A stretch of DNA of 64,000 bases from positions 15,619 to 79,618 of the forward strand of contig JBCNNR010000018.1 in the NCBI GenBank assembly GCA_039594295.1, given 5' to 3'. The translations under genes were made by a program, and so were the position numbers. Below, piece by piece: positions 4,285 to 10,796 of the stretch; position 1 is the first letter of the stretch; the number at the start of each line of letters is the position of its first letter. The notes beneath the pieces are model-generated. The model was not told the origin of the DNA. It did no database searches and saw nothing but the letters and a program-made list of their open reading frames with translations. The DNA is from Bdellovibrio sp. (GTDB lineage: Bacteria; Bdellovibrionota; Bdellovibrionia; Bdellovibrionales; Bdellovibrionaceae).

Positions 4285-4704
4285 ATGACAACATTTCTTA
4301 TTCTTATTAGCATCCTTGCTTCCTCTATCGTCCAAGCTCAGGTCAAGCCTCACTGTTTTGCACAGCCCTGTTCAATCCAGGGTGATTTCGACGGAGATAA
4401 AAAAGAAGACACGGCAGAGTTGGTGGAAAACCAACACCAACGTGGCATTCGTGTGAAGTTTGGCAACGGCAAGGAAGTACTCGTCGGTGCTGGAAATAAA
4501 GAAATCAAAGGGCTCAATGACCTGAAGTGGATGAACACCTGGGAACTTCATAAAGGACCCATCGAAAAAGCGACACTTAAAGGATCGAAAAAAGCTCCCA
4601 CAGCAAAAGGTGATACTCTTAAACTCTCCGAAGAATATGCAACTTCAGGCACTCTTTACTGGGATGGCAAAGAGTTTAAATGGTACCTACAGCTCGGCAA
4701 ATAA
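4285..4704 (+). CDS. Secreted hypothetical protein with an FG-GAP/EF-hand-like DFDGDKKED motif
   Basis: ATG at 4285 gives a clean signal peptide (MTTFLILISILASSIVQA/Q). The track start at 4111 overlaps the acyltransferase gene. CxxxC then GDFDGDKKEDTA. Confidence 0.6.
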   Translation: MTTFLILISILASSIVQAQVKPHCFAQPCSIQGDFDGDKKEDTAELVENQHQRGIRVKFGNGKEVLVGAGNKEIKGLNDLKWMNTWELHKGPIEKATLKGSKKAPTAKGDTLKLSEEYATSGTLYWDGKEFKWYLQLGK

Positions 4705-4733
4705 GCAGCAACCGTCAACAAAAGGATCCATCT

Positions 4734-5354
4734 ATGTCATTGCTGGAAGCTCTTAAAAACCAAGATCAGATCATTATTCGTCAGCGCAAAGAGTTGGGGG
4801 AGTTACTTGGTTTTGAAACTCGCAATAAGTACGAAATTTGTGATCAGCGTGGCCAGGTTATTGGCTTCTGCGCGGAACAACAAAAGGGTTTATTAGGTCT
4901 TATGATCAGACAGTTTCTGGGGCATTGGCGCAGCTTTGAGTTGCATTTCTTTGATAGCCAACGTCAGCAGGTTTTTAATGTGAAACATCCCTTTAGAATC
5001 TTCTTTCAACGCCTGGAAGTCTTCACGGCCCGTGGGCAGTACATTGGAGCTCTTCAACAGCGCTTTGCGATCTTCAGAAAGAAATTCGATATCGAAACAC
5101 CGCAGGGTCGAGTGATCATGAATATGGAATCAGGCTTTTTGCAGTTCTGGACATTTCCGATCTTCAAGGGCTCCATGGAGGCCGCCGTCATCAGAAAAAA
5201 GTGGTCTGGTCTTTTAAAAGAGGCTTTTTTAGACGCTGATAATTTTCAAGTTGAGTTCGGTCGCGCTGAACTCAGCGAGGAAGAGCGCTCCCTGATCCTG
5301 GCCTCGGCGATTTTCATCGATCTTCAGTACTTTGAACGTAAAGCTGGTGATTAA
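4734..5354 (+). CDS. Phospholipid scramblase / tubby-C (LURP-one) family protein
   Basis: Q..E..E.L.GFETRNKYEI, RQF....R.F, KKWSGLLKEAF.DADNFQVEF, LILA..IFID..YFE patterns typical of the scramblase family. Start taken at MSLLEAL with AAGGA upstream. Confidence 0.75.
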   Translation: MSLLEALKNQDQIIIRQRKELGELLGFETRNKYEICDQRGQVIGFCAEQQKGLLGLMIRQFLGHWRSFELHFFDSQRQQVFNVKHPFRIFFQRLEVFTARGQYIGALQQRFAIFRKKFDIETPQGRVIMNMESGFLQFWTFPIFKGSMEAAVIRKKWSGLLKEAFLDADNFQVEFGRAELSEEERSLILASAIFIDLQYFERKAGD

Positions 5355-5434
5355 AATTCGTAAAATCGCCGGCTTTTTATTAAAATCTTCTCAAAATTCC
5401 TTCGCGGTGCGCCTTAAAAAGGGCGCCTAACGCT

Positions 5435-5485
5435 GGACACATCAAGGTTTGTCCGGACAAATCTTGGACAAAGTTTAGTCTGTCC
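5435..5485. promoter_or_regulatory. Tandem palindromic operator-like sites GGACA-N10-TGTCC (x2)
   Basis: GGACA-CATCAAGGTT-TGTCC at 5435-5454 and GGACA-AAGTTTAGTC-TGTCC at 5466-5485 (TTGGACA...TGTCCAA, 7-bp arms), plus a fifth half-site at 5455-5459; about 120-170 bp upstream of the 5606 gene. Confidence 0.65.
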
Positions 5486-5605
5486 AAAAATCAAAAATGA
5501 CCCTTTTATTTCAAATTTACTTTTCCCGCAGAAAAGTGGAAACACCGTCTCATTCGAAACGAACAAGTTTTTAAAACAAAAACACTTTTAACAAAGGGAA
5601 ATAAA

Positions 5606-6073
5606 ATGAAATTCGTAGCAATGATCGCTCTATTGGTTTCTTCTTCTGCATTCGCAGCTAACTACTCTGCTGACACTTCTTGGGAAGTTCTTGAAAAAGA
5701 CCCAACAATCAAAATCGAAGCTGGCACAGTATTCATGGGTTCTGCTATCGACTACACTTTCGTATGCGTAGACGGTGCTAACCTTCGCACTAAAAAACCA
5801 GTTGCTCAATACGATGTTATCACTATCGGTGACAACTACCGTAAAGAAGTTTACAAAGGTTCTAAATACTTGACTACTCCAATCAACTACACTCGCACTG
5901 CTTGGGAATGTGACTGGAATGTTAACGGTAAACACCGCACTTGCGCTGACAAAGTTATCTCTGGAACTTACGCTCTAACTGTAGACGCTAAAGTTTCTAA
6001 AGTTCTTAACACTAAAAACGGTTACGAAAAGTTCTTGTTCACAAAACAATTGAACGTACCAAACTGCCAGTAA
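5606..6073 (+). CDS. Secreted 155-aa hypothetical protein with 4 Cys, probably highly expressed
   Basis: Signal peptide MKFVAMIALLVSSSAFA/A; AAGGGA RBS; codons strongly skewed to TTC/AAC/TAC/GAC/ATC/GCT/ACT; followed by a hairpin. Confidence 0.85.
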   Translation: MKFVAMIALLVSSSAFAANYSADTSWEVLEKDPTIKIEAGTVFMGSAIDYTFVCVDGANLRTKKPVAQYDVITIGDNYRKEVYKGSKYLTTPINYTRTAWECDWNVNGKHRTCADKVISGTYALTVDAKVSKVLNTKNGYEKFLFTKQLNVPNCQ

Positions 6074-6091
6074 TTACTTGCTGTTAGTTAG

Positions 6092-6123
6092 GACTCCGGG
6101 GCTTGACACTAAGCCCCGAAGTC
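6092..6123 (+). terminator. Intrinsic terminator-like hairpin
   Basis: CGGGGCTT-GACACT-AAGCCCCG stem-loop about 20 bp after the 6073 stop, followed by GTTTGT. Confidence 0.6.
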
Positions 6124-6185
6124 GTTTGTCTCGTTGCATTGAACCCCGTCCTGAGATAGTGAGAGCCATCGATTGATGGGGAACA

Positions 6186-6977
6186 ATGGAAATTAACGTC
6201 GAACTAAACGAGCGCCAAACGGTAAGTTCAATTCCGGACCAAGTGTCCCAGGATATTGAGACTTACTTATTGCGTTTCAAGGACCCGAAAAAGGGTCTGA
6301 GTATGTTGGCGACGAAGTCCCAGATCCACGTAAAGACGCTGAACAGATTGCGCGAGAAATCTCACAATCCTAATTACTCCACTCTTTACAAACTTTATTC
6401 CTGCCTTTTGGACACCCAAGACATTGCACAGGTCGCAGCGAAAGCTCCTCCTTTAGTGCGTGAAAAGCTGGAAAAGACGGATCCTCAATTGAAGTCTTCG
6501 CCCCTTCATCGTTTCAATTTTGATCTGGCTGCAGATATGCAAAAAGATCCTTGTTTCGTGGAACTCTATGTTCTGTCTGAAACTCGCCCCTTCGATGCTA
6601 ATTTTGTCCAACAGAGATTCGGTTCTTATGGTCTTGGTGTGCTCGAACGCATGCTGGATCAAAAAGTTCTCCGACCCCTCGGGAATGGACTTTATGGTCA
6701 AGGCGAAGTACGGGCACATTTTTCTTCAGAGACAATTAAAGCCGTCGGAATGAAGCTGACGGAAAGATTCTTGAAACCGTCGAACTCTGATGTGAACTTT
6801 GCGAACTTAATGAACGTGTATTTTGAGTCCGTGAGTGAAGAAACATATCGCGAATGGATTTTGATCGAAGAACGTGCTTTTAACGAGCGCGTGAAGTTAC
6901 TTGAGAAGCCGAATGCTAAGGGGAAAATACCAGTTTTTGCATTTACGGCGATTGATACGCTTTTGGAGAATGAATAA
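6186..6977 (+). CDS. HTH transcription regulator, TIGR02147/DUF4423-like architecture
   Basis: N-terminal XRE-like HTH (LSMLATKSQIHVKTLNRL...PNYSTLYKLY); central winged-helix-like segment (FVQQRFGSYGLGVLERMLDQKVL); C-terminal beta-alpha-beta (VYFESVSEETYREW...VFAFTAIDTL) as in DUF4423. Recognised by pattern only. Confidence 0.55.
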   Translation: MEINVELNERQTVSSIPDQVSQDIETYLLRFKDPKKGLSMLATKSQIHVKTLNRLREKSHNPNYSTLYKLYSCLLDTQDIAQVAAKAPPLVREKLEKTDPQLKSSPLHRFNFDLAADMQKDPCFVELYVLSETRPFDANFVQQRFGSYGLGVLERMLDQKVLRPLGNGLYGQGEVRAHFSSETIKAVGMKLTERFLKPSNSDVNFANLMNVYFESVSEETYREWILIEERAFNERVKLLEKPNAKGKIPVFAFTAIDTLLENE

Positions 6978-7102
6978 TGAAACTATTTATCGCACTACTT
7001 ATCGCTTCTATTTTAGTTATTGGCGCTGGCCAAAGTGCATATGCAGGTGGTGGGTCTTCCGGTGGTTCTGGCAACCAACCTCCTCACGGAAACGGCAGAT
7101 AG
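6977..7102 (+). CDS. Small secreted peptide (41 aa; the frame continues past TAG to TGA at 7148-7150)
   Basis: Not in the ORF track. ATG overlaps the regulator stop (TAATG). MKLFIALLIASILVIGAGQSAYA/GGGSSGGSGNQPPHGNGR* has a classic Sec signal with an AYA cleavage site. Confidence 0.7.
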   Translation: MKLFIALLIASILVIGAGQSAYAGGGSSGGSGNQPPHGNGR

Positions 7103-7163
7103 CCGATTCCCTGGTCCGGTGACGGCAGAGAGCCGTTACCATTCAATTGATTTATAATTTTTC

Positions 7164-7194
7164 AAACCCGATGCAGTGATGTATCGGGTTTTTT
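7164..7194 (+). terminator. Intrinsic terminator
   Basis: AAACCCGATGCA-GTGA-TGTATCGGGTTT followed by further Ts; 13 nt after TGA at 7150. Confidence 0.8.
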
Positions 7195-7231
7195 GTTTTG
7201 TAGTGATCCCAAATACATTATGATTTTTTCT

Positions 7232-7819
7232 ATGAGAAAACTTCTATGCATCATAATGTTTATTCCTTTCTTAGGTTGTAAATCGCTGACCACGGATCAA
7301 AATCGGAGATCGGCCTCTGTGGTGACCGGTCACCAGTGCACAATCGCACCAGAAGAACAGCAGAAGCTTCTGGCTTTGGACTATAAGAGTTTTGATCAAA
7401 CGCTCCCAGATGGTGGTTGGAGAAGGTACGAGCAGGCAAACTGCTATGAATCGGCGGCAAATCTTATTGATCAATATGTCGCTCAAAATTTAAGCAAATT
7501 GCTTGAGTATCAGCGCCGGGGCATGACTTGGCATGCGGGACAGATGCATGCATTTGTGGGGCAAACGGAGCTCGCGGTTGCACGCTTCAAAAGTTCTTAT
7601 GACTTGAAAGTCGCACCAGAAGACACTTTTAAGTGGAATGCCTATGTGAAAGGCACGATCGCTTTCCTTGAACACGACATGAAATCTTTGATTGAAGCTC
7701 GTGATGAAATGGCCGCTGTGAGCGCGGATCAACGCAGTAAGAATTTTGCATTTATTGAAGCCTTTGTTCGTTGTTTCGACAAACCTTATAGCGAAGCGTA
7801 CAATACAAGCTGTAAGTGA
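7232..7819 (+). CDS. Hypothetical lipoprotein, helical/TPR-like
   Basis: ATG at 7232 gives MRKLLCIIMFIPFLG/C (lipobox-like); LALDY..FDQ...GGWR, WHAGQ and WNAYV.GT.AFL segments look like a conserved uncharacterised family. Confidence 0.65.
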   Translation: MRKLLCIIMFIPFLGCKSLTTDQNRRSASVVTGHQCTIAPEEQQKLLALDYKSFDQTLPDGGWRRYEQANCYESAANLIDQYVAQNLSKLLEYQRRGMTWHAGQMHAFVGQTELAVARFKSSYDLKVAPEDTFKWNAYVKGTIAFLEHDMKSLIEARDEMAAVSADQRSKNFAFIEAFVRCFDKPYSEAYNTSCK

Positions 7820-7867
7820 TACTGTTGCTTTGAATTGCAACAGTATTAAAACGGCTCCATTTACCAC

Positions 7868-7883
7868 TGGTACACGAATTGCT
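7868..7883 (+). promoter_or_regulatory. Sigma54-type promoter (-24/-12)
   Basis: TGGTACACGAATTGCT = GG-N10-GC with TGG...TTGC consensus, 56 bp upstream of the 7940 HTH gene; a 10-bp inverted repeat (ATACTGTTGC-N8-GCAACAGTAT, 7819-7846) lies just upstream. Confidence 0.6.
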
Positions 7884-7939
7884 TTTTATTCTTCATGAAC
7901 TTTGCAGGAGAGCAAAGTGACACTGAGGGGTAGGGGAAC

Positions 7940-8254
7940 GTGAGTCGAGTGCATCAAATTTTAAAATCTGCGTTAGAGCGCAGACAAAGCCTAAATCCAA
8001 AATATTCGTTACGCAATTTTGCAAAAGATCTCGCGGTCAATCCAAGTTTTGTCTCGCGCATTTTGACTGGCAAGCAGACCGTTCCCAGTTCTCGGCTGGA
8101 GCAAATCATTCAAACTCTGGAAATGGATTCGCATACGTCTAAGATGTTGAAAATTGAACTGATCAGAGACTATATGAAAGAGCTTGGTATCCACGAAAAA
8201 GAGCTCCTCAAAGAGGAGCTCTGGGAATCTGTCGTCGCAGAAGAGGTTACATGA
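7940..8254 (+). CDS. Stand-alone XRE-type HTH resembling the N-terminus of TIGR02147 proteins (no DUF4423 part)
   Basis: LERRQSLNPKYSLRNFAKDLAVNPSFVSRILTGKQ matches the NP.YSLR.FA..L...PS..S..L.GK pattern of that family; only 104 aa; stop overlaps the convergent S8 gene by 8 bp. Confidence 0.7.
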   Translation: MSRVHQILKSALERRQSLNPKYSLRNFAKDLAVNPSFVSRILTGKQTVPSSRLEQIIQTLEMDSHTSKMLKIELIRDYMKELGIHEKELLKEELWESVVAEEVT

Positions 8255-10796
8255 AGACGGCTTCACAGCGAATAGCAGCGGTGGGCGTCGTTTTCTTGCT
8301 GAAGATCGCCTTGGCTTCTTTTGTTTGAGTCGTGGCTTCTTTGGAGGTGCCCCATTTTTTAATACCTTCAGTCAGCATGCGAATAGTTACGACTGAAGAG
8401 TTCGGGCTGACCTTCGCCATGGCCATAACGTCTTTCACCACTTGTTCTGGCATCATGCTGGGGTGAAGGTAGACATCTTTCGAAGAAATATGCTCTTTGT
8501 GCATTTTCTGTACAAGATAATTTGCCAAGATGCCCGTGACTGTTGGAGTTGCCATCGAAGTGCCAGATAAATTCTGACGACCTAATGGCGCATCCAGGTG
8601 AAGTTTGATGGATATGGATTTTTTCAGGGATTCGATGACGCTTCCAGCTTCAAGAGCAAGGCCCTGTTTTCTGACCTTTTCCGTGAATTCAATATTTTCC
8701 TTATCATACGAACTACTAATAAGTAATTGAGCGGACGCTAAGCCATCAAATCCTTGAGCCACAAGTTTCGTCGAATTTGCGGAGTTCTTCGCTGGAACAG
8801 AAGAATAAATTTCTTCCCCTGTTGAAAAGATTTGTGGAACCTTGGGGTCGATTAAAATATTGGTAAATGCGGTGAGTGTCCCGTTGACGTTGACACTGCC
8901 CACGGCCAAAAGGTTTTTCACTGCGTTGTTCGGAGTGTCAGGAAGGTTTTTTCTTTTCGCAATTTCCAAGAAGCGAGTTGAAGTGATACCCACAGGGAAG
9001 CCGGCTTTTGTAACCCCGTCCAACCAACCACCATCATTGCCAGTGGCGACCACAAAAAGAGTTCCTGGTGCTTTGGTGTTCATGGTGTGACCGATTTTAT
9101 AGCGAACAAATTCAGAATATAGATCATTCACCATAGATTCATGTTTCTTTTCCAAACTGTGATCTTTTTGAAACGTGGTTCCAAGTGATACATTCGCCAG
9201 TTTCAATTGTTGCTCACCTGCGGCTTCGACCGCTTTTAGGACGTCGTTGATAAAGACAGCATCTAACGTGCCTTTCGGAGTGTTCAGGTAATCTTTAAGG
9301 ATACTTTCGGCGCGTTTGGGTGTCATTTTCATTCCCGAATACTCAGCGCTTACGACGTTCATCAACTCTGCGACGATGGGTAATTGCAGCCACTCGCTGA
9401 ACTCTGTGAGATACTGATCAACCAATGCTTTTCGTCTGATTGGCGCCAGGGCCACGGAAGATGTGGTGACGCGAATAGGAACGATGCGGATATTGGGGTT
9501 TTGATGGGCGATGACACCAGAGACGTGTGTCGCATGAATATTTCCGTTACTTTCTGAAGATAAATAAGGATGTTGTGTGCGGATCACATAGCGGCGCAAA
9601 TCGGATTTCATTTTTTTGTAGGCGGCAGGGTCGTTTTGCATATCTGTTAAACTTTGCGCAACGGCTTTAAGGTTATCAATATTGCGAATCGCTTTACGAA
9701 CGGCCTCTTTTTCTTCTTTTTTCAAAGAAGCGTCTTTTAAAAGGGCTTCATAGCGAGGTTTATTCTCTGAAATAATCGATTCAACCACTTCCAGTGGAGT
9801 TTTGTCATTCCAACGCGGACTGGATTTAATTTGTCGTTCGAATTGAACCAAAGGATCAAAACCGTCAGCTCCCCAGATGACCATGCTAAACGCCGCGTCC
9901 ATGGCTTTTAATGTTGCGGAGCGATTGATCGGAAGAATTGAATCAGTTTGCTGTATCTTTAAGTATGCAAGGAGATTTTCAAAGTTTTTGTTAAAACCTG
10001 TTTTTTGATCAGTGAATTCCAGGGAGCTTTTAAGTGCCTCATAAAAGCGTTTGGCATGTTCAATTCTTTCAGCATTTCGCATCATGTTCGGTGCGAAACG
10101 GTCGGGTCCTGTATAGAAGTCGAAGATTCGATTGTCTTTTATTTCTTGCTCAGTAAATGGGGTGACTTTGTCAACTTCGACCTGAAGTGCATCGATTGTA
10201 TAATTTCTTGTGAGGTCCAGAGCACCGCGAAGAGAAAGACTTTCTTTTGGAATTTTCGCAAAGAGACTTTGTTTTAGTTCCGGATCTGTTTGAAGTGCAT
10301 TATAGAAATGTTCCACGAAAGTATCGTTGGACTGTCTAATCAACTGCAATGGACTTTCTGCAGGTTCTACGATTAAGCCATTTTTTATTTCTTTGGCACC
10401 GAAAGCAAAAAGAGTTGGGTCCACCATGATGTGGGTTCCTGAAGGACCACCACCCATCACGTCGATACCTGCGCCAGCAACGCGACCATCGACGATGCGA
10501 TAATCAATTTGTGCTTGAAGATCTTTGTGCGCGATATCCACACCGCTGTCGATCACGCCGACGCGGAGTAAGTCTGTTCTGCGCGCATCTTTTTCCTGAC
10601 GGAGTACAATGGCATCGCGCTCTTTTTGTGAAAGCTCACGCACTTGGCTGCGCATCCACTCCAACTGGCGGGGGAATTTACCACTCCAAAACGAATCTCG
10701 GGGATCTTGCGAGGGTCCCGTTTTACAGGAAGGCAAGGCTAAGATAACGGCTAATGATAGCATCATAACGCGGCTTTTTGATTTCATTTTACTCAT
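8247..10796 (-). CDS. S8 (subtilisin-like) serine peptidase, lipoprotein, with a large insertion
   Basis: Catalytic motifs VGVIDSGVD, HATHVSG, VATGND, SGTSMATP; lipobox-like LALPS/C; about 300-aa helical insert between the Asp and His motifs. Confidence 0.9.
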   Translation of the reverse strand: MSKMKSKSRVMMLSLAVILALPSCKTGPSQDPRDSFWSGKFPRQLEWMRSQVRELSQKERDAIVLRQEKDARRTDLLRVGVIDSGVDIAHKDLQAQIDYRIVDGRVAGAGIDVMGGGPSGTHIMVDPTLFAFGAKEIKNGLIVEPAESPLQLIRQSNDTFVEHFYNALQTDPELKQSLFAKIPKESLSLRGALDLTRNYTIDALQVEVDKVTPFTEQEIKDNRIFDFYTGPDRFAPNMMRNAERIEHAKRFYEALKSSLEFTDQKTGFNKNFENLLAYLKIQQTDSILPINRSATLKAMDAAFSMVIWGADGFDPLVQFERQIKSSPRWNDKTPLEVVESIISENKPRYEALLKDASLKKEEKEAVRKAIRNIDNLKAVAQSLTDMQNDPAAYKKMKSDLRRYVIRTQHPYLSSESNGNIHATHVSGVIAHQNPNIRIVPIRVTTSSVALAPIRRKALVDQYLTEFSEWLQLPIVAELMNVVSAEYSGMKMTPKRAESILKDYLNTPKGTLDAVFINDVLKAVEAAGEQQLKLANVSLGTTFQKDHSLEKKHESMVNDLYSEFVRYKIGHTMNTKAPGTLFVVATGNDGGWLDGVTKAGFPVGITSTRFLEIAKRKNLPDTPNNAVKNLLAVGSVNVNGTLTAFTNILIDPKVPQIFSTGEEIYSSVPAKNSANSTKLVAQGFDGLASAQLLISSSYDKENIEFTEKVRKQGLALEAGSVIESLKKSISIKLHLDAPLGRQNLSGTSMATPTVTGILANYLVQKMHKEHISSKDVYLHPSMMPEQVVKDVMAMAKVSPNSSVVTIRMLTEGIKKWGTSKEATTQTKEAKAIFSKKTTPTAAIRCEAVFM

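Follow-up and report, generated by a model that had tools for sequence, protein, structure and literature searches.

A probable locally regulated Bdellovibrio operon with a split exported partner, from a sister family of the TIGR02147/DUF4423 regulators

The TIGR02147 ('Fsuc_second')/DUF4423 proteins are helix-turn-helix (HTH) proteins of unknown function which have expanded in Bdellovibrio and Fibrobacter. Another group of described systems, RRNPP (PlcR-PapR, NprR-NprX, Rap-Phr, AimR-AimP and Rgg-SHP), shares with the locus reported here an HTH regulator gene followed, in one transcription unit, by an open reading frame (ORF) of about 40 amino acids (aa) with a secretion signal, together with palindromic operators. 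Our locus lies in a 64,000-nucleotide (nt) stretch of Bdellovibrio sp. DNA (assembly GCA_039594295.1, contig JBCNNR010000018.1, positions 15,619 to 79,618 of the forward strand), referred to below as the window. Its elements follow one another in the order twin palindromes, a gene for a predicted exported protein (sec155), a regulator gene (reg263), a 41-aa short ORF (sORF) and a single terminator. An earlier note, made from the sequence of the window, had proposed a TIGR02147/DUF4423-like regulator coupled to a secreted signalling peptide in the manner of RRNPP. We propose that the cassette, whose regulator comes from a hitherto undescribed sister family of TIGR02147/DUF4423 and whose exported partner is split, is most likely an operon under local control that is specific to the lineage of Bdellovibrio and Pseudobdellovibrio. 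The anatomy described in the earlier note (palindromes, secreted-protein gene, regulator gene, an ORF joined to it by TAATG and one terminator) is present in full, with the following features.

5435-5454, no strand assigned: putative operator palindrome 1, GGACA-N10-TGTCC, one of two such sites in the genome, its arms invariant and its spacer variable in relatives.
5455-5459, no strand assigned: extra GGACA half-site between the palindromes, read in the sequence and partly conserved in relatives.
5466-5485, no strand assigned: putative operator palindrome 2, GGACA-N10-TGTCC, its start 31 nt downstream of that of palindrome 1, a phasing kept in close relatives.
5486-5605, plus strand: sec155 promoter and 5' leader region, where a 20-locus alignment has blocks TTTAC(A/T) / TTGAAT and GGAA(A/T)CA, then a Shine-Dalgarno sequence.
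5606-6073, plus strand: sec155, predicted exported 155-aa all-beta protein with four invariant Cys, extreme codon bias and homology to the long downstream partners of relatives.
6092-6123, plus strand: GC-rich hairpin after sec155 followed by an imperfect U-tract, found in a fold of 6066-6190, its stem kept by compensatory changes.
6137-6188, plus strand: hairpin pairing the Shine-Dalgarno sequence and start codon of the regulator gene, with a compensatory change from CCCCGUCC/GAUGGGG to CCCCUUCC/GAAGGGG.
6186-6977, plus strand: reg263, cytoplasmic 263-aa regulator; Xre-type HTH at about 16-97 and winged helix at about 114-172, then C-terminal helices.
6977-7045, plus strand: signal-peptide part of the sORF, 23 aa, MKLFIALLIASILVIGAGQSAYA, read in the sequence, with A-x-A motif and hydrophobic core kept.
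7046-7102, plus strand: predicted mature 18-aa peptide of the sORF, GGGSSGGSGNQPPHGNGR, with conserved Gly core and basic C-terminus, and TAG stop.
7164-7200, plus strand: intrinsic terminator of the operon, a 12-bp stem followed by TTTTGTTTTGT (hairpin and T-run at 7164-7191 by pattern scan).

The nature of the exported partner is apparent in relatives of the cassette. At each of 29 loci fetched across the phylum, the regulator gene is followed by an ORF which encodes a signal peptide and a G-x-G-G-x-x-G-G motif and which starts between -22 and +15 nt of the regulator stop codon. Nineteen of these partners are 130-193 aa long and have, after the glycine motif, a beta domain homologous to sec155; the other ten, all from Bdellovibrio or Pseudobdellovibrio, measure 39-44 aa. 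When sec155 was compared with the long partners by hhalign, the match extended over the full length of sec155 (99.3%, E 1e-20), and the only extra segment in the long partners was the glycine motif, located between the signal peptide and the 'SWE' at which the domain starts. It is with this post-signal-peptide motif that the mature sORF peptide aligns. In the second, paralogous cassette of Bdellovibrio sp. NC01 (L060) and in a metagenomic relative (L064), the downstream ORFs of 165 and 159 aa, respectively, encode a signal peptide, GGGGSAGG... and a globular part related to sec155. A locus from a different bacterial family (L057) has a downstream ORF of 102 aa, the globular part of which is 66% identical to the secreted protein encoded upstream in the same locus and has no significant match to sec155.

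Intermediates are represented by L060 and L095, where a sec155 copy upstream and a long partner downstream occur together. The simplest history would be that the partner gene was duplicated, giving an upstream copy without the motif and a downstream copy which lost the domain. The ancestral downstream gene would have encoded a signal peptide, G-x-G-G-x-x-G-G and a sec155-like domain, the split would have put the domain upstream, and the remnant left downstream would consist of signal peptide, motif and basic C-terminus, still translationally coupled to the regulator. The expectation of the earlier note that homologous regulators are systematically followed by signal-peptide ORFs held in all 29 family loci, and also in at least 15 of 35 TIGR02147 paralogues. 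Its picture of a stand-alone peptide gene did not hold, as the downstream ORF of relatives encodes a 130-193-aa secreted protein of which the 41-aa ORF is the front. In another bacterial family (L061-L063, L096 and L097), regulator homologues are preceded by genes for 264-296-aa secreted Cys-rich proteins; these cassettes occur in tandem and are without a downstream glycine-motif partner, and in L096 the regulator start lies within the end of the upstream gene.

The sORF (6977-7102, 41 aa), the ATG of which shares one base with the TAA of the regulator gene, is a real gene whose mature part is under strong purifying selection. In three clades, the mature part had synonymous differences per site (pS) of 0.42-0.62 and non-synonymous differences per site (pN) of 0.00-0.05, with pN/pS ratios of 0.11, 0.05 and 0; the signal peptide, with pN/pS of 0.26-0.34 in the two larger clades, is under weaker constraint. 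Gene order, including the sORF, is kept in all close loci examined, hairpins equivalent to the operon terminator are present in relatives, and the sORF is kept behind regulators down to 35% identity in related genomes. Eight public-genome loci have a 41-44-aa ORF directly after the regulator gene, with a shared plan of MK(L/F)FIAL..., an A-x-A site, GGGS(S/A)GG... and a terminal Arg, and in about 20 loci both the mature-peptide core GGG(S/T)(A/S)GG and the basic C-terminus are conserved. A Shine-Dalgarno sequence precedes every sORF start, and the regulator stop is either overlapped by 1 or 4 nt or followed by a short gap. The signal peptide is predicted from sequence features alone, namely K2, a hydrophobic core and a small-x-small cleavage motif, the last of which is kept in nearly all relatives. 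Because the stub is both conserved and under purifying selection, the peptide likely has a function of some kind.

The sORF had been described as unannotated, which is wrong in general, since it is called as a protein in several records; the gene sets of strains 109J and HD100 include it (in the latter, as Bd1643 / NP_968525). Its product has no match in NCBIfam or Pfam, and a protein search with it returned 2 clusters only, as small ORFs are rarely called. In the window, the 3' end of the sORF is tandemly duplicated at 7085-7150 (GGAAACGGCAGATAG... / GGTGACGGCAGAGAG...), each copy forming a small hairpin with the stop codon, or GAG, in its loop, and relatives have other small hairpins around the sORF stop. 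Read-through of the amber codon was considered and rejected, given that the reading frame beyond the TAG is not conserved: the nearest genome has a frameshift and a second TAG here, and others are without the duplication. A role of the motif as a general sorting tag was likewise rejected, given that the combination of signal peptide and GGGSxGG occurs once in the genome.

For the regulator, the AlphaFold2 model (predicted local distance difference test score, pLDDT, of 72) comprises an Xre-type HTH (16-97) joined by a disordered linker to a winged helix (114-172), with further helices at the C-terminus. A Foldseek search of PDB with this model matched the HTH and winged-helix domains only and gave no full-length structural match; the HTH resembles those of SinR, DdrO, C.Esp1396I and lambda cI, and ComR aligns through its HTH with a Foldseek probability of 0.23. 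Likewise, PDB sequence profiles match at the HTH level only, HigA and HTH_3 included, and weak HTH_3 matches were obtained for 12 of 31 family members. No tetratricopeptide repeat (TPR) or other recognisable peptide-binding repeat domain was found in the model or among the Foldseek matches to PDB.

Assignment of the regulator to TIGR02147/DUF4423, as made in the earlier note, fails in direct hidden Markov model searches and survives as a remote relationship. The window regulator matches neither TIGR02147 (cut-off 50 bits) nor Pfam DUF4423 (PF14394) at E<=1, none of 31 close homologues matches PF14394 at E<=10, none of 87 diverse family members matches TIGR02147 at E<=0.01, and a genome-wide TIGR02147 scan, which returned 62 matches (about 50 paralogues), did not include reg263. 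By hhalign, however, an 87-sequence profile of the regulator family aligned with 35 TIGR02147 paralogues of the same genome at 97.6% (E 3.6e-12, 211 columns), regulator residues 32-244 being collinear with residues 36-267 of the paralogues; a shallow regulator profile reached 54% only. Profile comparison thus identifies the reg263 family as a distinct, remote sister of TIGR02147/DUF4423 and not as a member of it. An exhaustive profile search yielded 290 clusters at 50% identity, mostly of 250-300 aa, and all homologues found belong to Bdellovibrionota, where 75 of 301 genomes have the family, in as many as 9 copies each. The regulator is single-copy in its own genome and was found in 15 of the 37 genomes of the genus.

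A parallel to the regulator-partner pairing is provided by the genuine TIGR02147 genes of the same genome. Of 35 full-length TIGR02147 paralogues, at least 15 are coupled to a downstream gene whose product is a secreted protein of 217-358 aa. The start of this gene overlaps the regulator stop (mostly by a 4-nt ATGA overlap) or lies within a few nt of it, and four more such secreted proteins are encoded by divergent neighbours of TIGR02147 genes. The coupled partners have (R/K)(V/I)xNGG(G/D) just after the signal peptide, plus an HE or HExxH motif, and no Pfam or NCBIfam model covers them. This N-terminal pattern is otherwise rare in the genome, the remaining matches being mostly lipoproteins with poly-Gly linkers. 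As judged by these motifs, two related regulator families keep a glycine motif after the signal peptide of their partners, the globular parts of which are unrelated. Examples of such pairs in the same genome, outside the window, are:

C26:14184-15960: TIGR02147 regulator-partner pair.
C4:32922-31830: TIGR02147 regulator-partner pair.
C18:37741-36720: TIGR02147 regulator-partner pair.

The GGACA-N10-TGTCC palindromes upstream of sec155 are the only two sites of this kind in the 4.1-Mb genome, where about three scattered ones would be expected from base composition; other spacer lengths between the same arms give 0-5 matches each. In all Bdellovibrio and Pseudobdellovibrio loci, including those of HD100 and 109J, the arms are invariant, the spacers variable and the phasing 31-32 nt, and versions with one or two mismatches stand at the same place in more distant loci. 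Where no sec155 gene lies upstream (L056, L064, L069 and L071), similar sites are found directly upstream of the regulator gene, as two sites 30 nt apart in L056, one exact site in L064 and GGACA-N11-TGTCC in L069 and L071. The sites therefore travel with the regulator and not with sec155, which is the behaviour expected of the regulator's own operator. Conservation, phasing and this joint movement all support the proposal, already made in the earlier note, that the palindromes are the operator, to which the regulator itself would bind. Upstream of sec155, a pattern scan found no sigma-70 consensus, and no FliA- or sigma-54-like motif was seen by eye.

Between sec155 and the regulator gene, the region 6066-6190 folds with -46 kcal/mol (z = -3.97 against shuffled controls), and both of its stems (6092-6123 and 6137-6188) are maintained through compensatory changes in relatives. 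The hairpin directly after sec155, which is followed by a full U-tract in one relative (L089), is a probable leaky terminator or attenuator. Together, the two hairpins fit a high output of sec155 combined with an expression of regulator and peptide that is attenuated and damped at translation.

The N-terminus of sec155 reads as a signal sequence, and its four Cys, invariant in the family alignment, probably form two disulfides. The AlphaFold2 model is all-beta (pLDDT 71); neither a Foldseek search nor PDB sequence profiles found a relative, and sec155 has no match in NCBIfam or Pfam. In the nearest genome, sec155 is 99% identical and the regulator 90%. The effective number of codons (ENC) of sec155, 27.1, is the second lowest among 3413 ORFs of at least 150 aa in the genome, below EF-Tu and the ribosomal proteins, so that the earlier description of a codon-optimised secreted-protein gene is borne out. 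After two genes of the sec155 family, the ranking continues with EF-Tu, S2, EF-Ts, GroEL and flagellin, which validates the measure. Codon usage of this kind indicates that sec155 would be produced at a very high level when the operon is on. The genome contains two more genes of the sec155 family, both 161 aa and about 40% identical to sec155, at C7:22310-22792 and C35:21498-21971. The one on C7 has the lowest ENC in the genome (26.9); it is a monocistronic gene that ends in a terminator of its own and is convergent with a TIGR02147 gene.

On balance, it is somewhat probable that the cassette is an autoregulated secreted-protein operon in which the sORF yields an exported 18-aa peptide with a function tied to the regulator. 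The regulator would bind both phased palindromes as a dimer of dimers and, through these twin operators, would control transcription of sec155; read-through past the leaky terminator would bring the regulator gene and the sORF under the same control, and the sORF peptide would be Sec-exported and cleaved to 18 aa. Since the motif module stayed with the regulator, under selection, while the domain moved, the glycine motif appears to matter to the relationship between regulator and partner.

Several observations weigh against this reading. The centres of the palindrome half-sites are 15 bp apart, an uncommon spacing for a simple HTH dimer, and the palindromes lie about 120 nt upstream of the sec155 start codon, a position which tells neither repression nor activation. 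The peptide is glycine-rich and of low complexity, and its motif similarity to the long partners could for that reason be partly compositional. Moreover, in HD100 the corresponding genes Bd1645, Bd1644 and Bd1643 had reads per kilobase per million (RPKM) values of 0/11.6, 0.4/2.6 and 0/0, respectively (attack phase / 3-h growth phase), and all three are marked 'silent' in PMC3627812, Table S1, so that high expression of the sec155 type is not seen in HD100 under standard predation. A gene built for very high output yet off in standard conditions implies tight conditional control. In microarray data (PMC2797640, supplement), Bd1643-1645 move together, with ratio sets of about 0.8-1.0 and about 0.25-0.47 (values taken without their column headings). 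The HD100 record gives Bd1645 as 174 aa, and other B. bacteriovorus records have a 154-aa start with a normal signal peptide; the 174-aa start is probably a mis-call.

Conditional switching of a silent operon is also what would be expected from feedback or signalling by the exported peptide, a possibility which we consider rather unlikely. Here, a secreted and possibly trimmed glycine-motif peptide would be sensed, either directly after re-import or indirectly via an envelope sensor, and would switch the activity of the regulator, coupling sec155 to cell density, bdelloplast confinement or secretion status. The translational coupling of regulator and peptide, which persists across two genera though the globular domain moved upstream, argues for this, as do the purifying selection that is strongest on the mature peptide, the post-signal-peptide glycine motif always carried by secreted partners in two related regulator families, and the nearly exclusive location of motif proteins in the same genome beside such regulators. 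Nevertheless, neither a TPR nor any other known peptide-binding domain was found in the regulator, the ancestral partner is a 130-193-aa protein and not a pro-peptide, and the cassette encodes no importer or sensor. The peptide itself, Gly/Ser-rich and of low complexity, is unlike known pheromones and nearly invariant within clades, with no strain-level 'pherotype' diversification. More far-reaching, and still less likely, is the idea that the glycine motif is in general an exported cue read back by the co-translated regulator, with dozens of orthogonal pairs of DUF4423-superfamily regulator and exported ligand in Bdellovibrionota. If true, these regulators would be non-TPR receptors, the 18-aa peptide of the Bd1643 type would be the minimal form, a ligand freed from its carrier domain, and the whole would be a Gram-negative counterpart of RRNPP signalling which times bursts of secreted predatory proteins.

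It is quite improbable that the sORF has no peptide function at all and is a 5' stub, either decaying slowly or kept for effects in cis, such as terminator positioning or a coupling that protects the 3' end of the regulator mRNA. That relatives have a longer gene whose 5' end is homologous to the sORF would agree with such a stub, and so would the variable tandem duplication and the small hairpins around the sORF stop codon; yet the sORF stays within 39-44 aa, both genera share its stop position and basic C-terminus, and in the mature part pS (0.42-0.62) far exceeds pN (0.03-0.05). A role in cis alone is therefore disfavoured, as it would not constrain the amino acid sequence. Least probable of all, and by our estimate very much so, is that the N-terminus stays uncleaved and the sORF product is a 41-aa single-pass membrane protein, acting as a modulator or as the toxin-like partner of an Xre-type 'antitoxin'. 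The gene pair does overlap, its first gene is an HTH autoregulator with palindromic operators, HigA antitoxin is among the best PDB profile matches (at the HTH level only), and the size and shape of the product are common among small membrane proteins. However, in nearly all homologues the small-x-small motif stands right before the glycine motif, the long-form partners are clearly exported globular proteins, and a 263-aa regulator with two extra domains is unlike antitoxins.

The surroundings of the cassette contain several further genes. Upstream, and syntenic in the closest relatives, the window encodes at 4680-5354 a 224-aa protein with a strong full-length match to Pfam Scramblase (PF03803, E 9e-42). 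Downstream, a gene for a putative lipoprotein of about 200 aa (7193-7819) sits between the sORF terminator and an HTH-only gene, and looks like a local insertion, since it is absent at that position from the related loci examined. The HTH-only ORF (7940-8254, 104 aa) has a TIGR02147 match limited to its N-terminal 60 residues (E 1e-5), is conserved beside the cassette in the closest relatives and abuts a convergent gene at 8247-10796 for an 849-aa secreted, protease-like protein. An Rfam search of 5200-8300 returned nothing relevant.

The searchable literature contains no description of the regulator family, of the regulator-partner pairing or of Bd1643-1645. The main texts of papers do not mention Bd1643-1646, DUF4423 appears in one proteome paper only, and Bd1643-1645 are not among the genes listed in the proteome and transposon sequencing (Tn-seq) supplement files searched. 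The combination of a codon bias among the top two of the genome with a silent orthologue in HD100 suggests that Bdellovibrio has a secretion programme of high output which is tied to particular conditions and has so far escaped study.

In comparison with RRNPP, with which the likeness had first been drawn, reg263 shares the N-terminal HTH (as in PlcR, NprR, Rgg, AimR and PrgX) and is without a TPR domain, so that an RRNPP-like receptor is not supported and the resemblance is confined to layout. RRNPP systems belong to Firmicutes and their phages, and this one to a Gram-negative predator; its 'propeptide' is a secreted protein in truncated form, with full-length relatives of 130-193 aa, and the mature part is Gly/Ser-rich and not diversified between strains. 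A type II toxin-antitoxin system of the Xre/HigA type was also considered and rejected, as the regulator has 263 aa and three regions, and the partner carries a Sec-type signal peptide, its counterparts in relatives being exported beta proteins; searches of NCBIfam and Pfam gave no match to a toxin family. The cassette can also be compared with local XRE- or MarR-type regulators encoded in their target operon, which are alike in the proposed autoregulation and in phased palindromes unique to the locus and travelling with the regulator gene. It differs from them in that coupling to an exported partner is fixed across a whole protein superfamily, in that the codon bias of the target exceeds that of ribosomal protein genes, and in that the partner is split into two exported products.

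A further comparison is with TIGR02147/DUF4423 itself, the name of which is attached to the HD100 orthologue in UniProt ('DUF4423 domain-containing'). Proteins of that family, like reg263, have about 260-290 aa, an N-terminal Xre-type HTH and the same central domain, and their stop codon likewise overlaps the start of a gene for a secreted glycine-motif protein. The partners differ, those of the reg263 family having a small sec155-like beta domain in place of a 217-358-aa HE(xxH) protein, and a bipartite G-x-G-G-x-x-G-G motif in place of x-N-G-G-(G/D); a short partner of 39-44 aa next to the regulator is found in Bdellovibrio and Pseudobdellovibrio, the rest of the family having the 130-193-aa secreted protein. 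In predatory bacteria, proteins of the DUF4423/TIGR02147 type make up some of the largest paralogous families without a known function, and for these the cassette offers a testable system, with one regulator, a genome-unique operator pair, a clear output gene and a partner which is reduced to a synthesisable 18-aa peptide.

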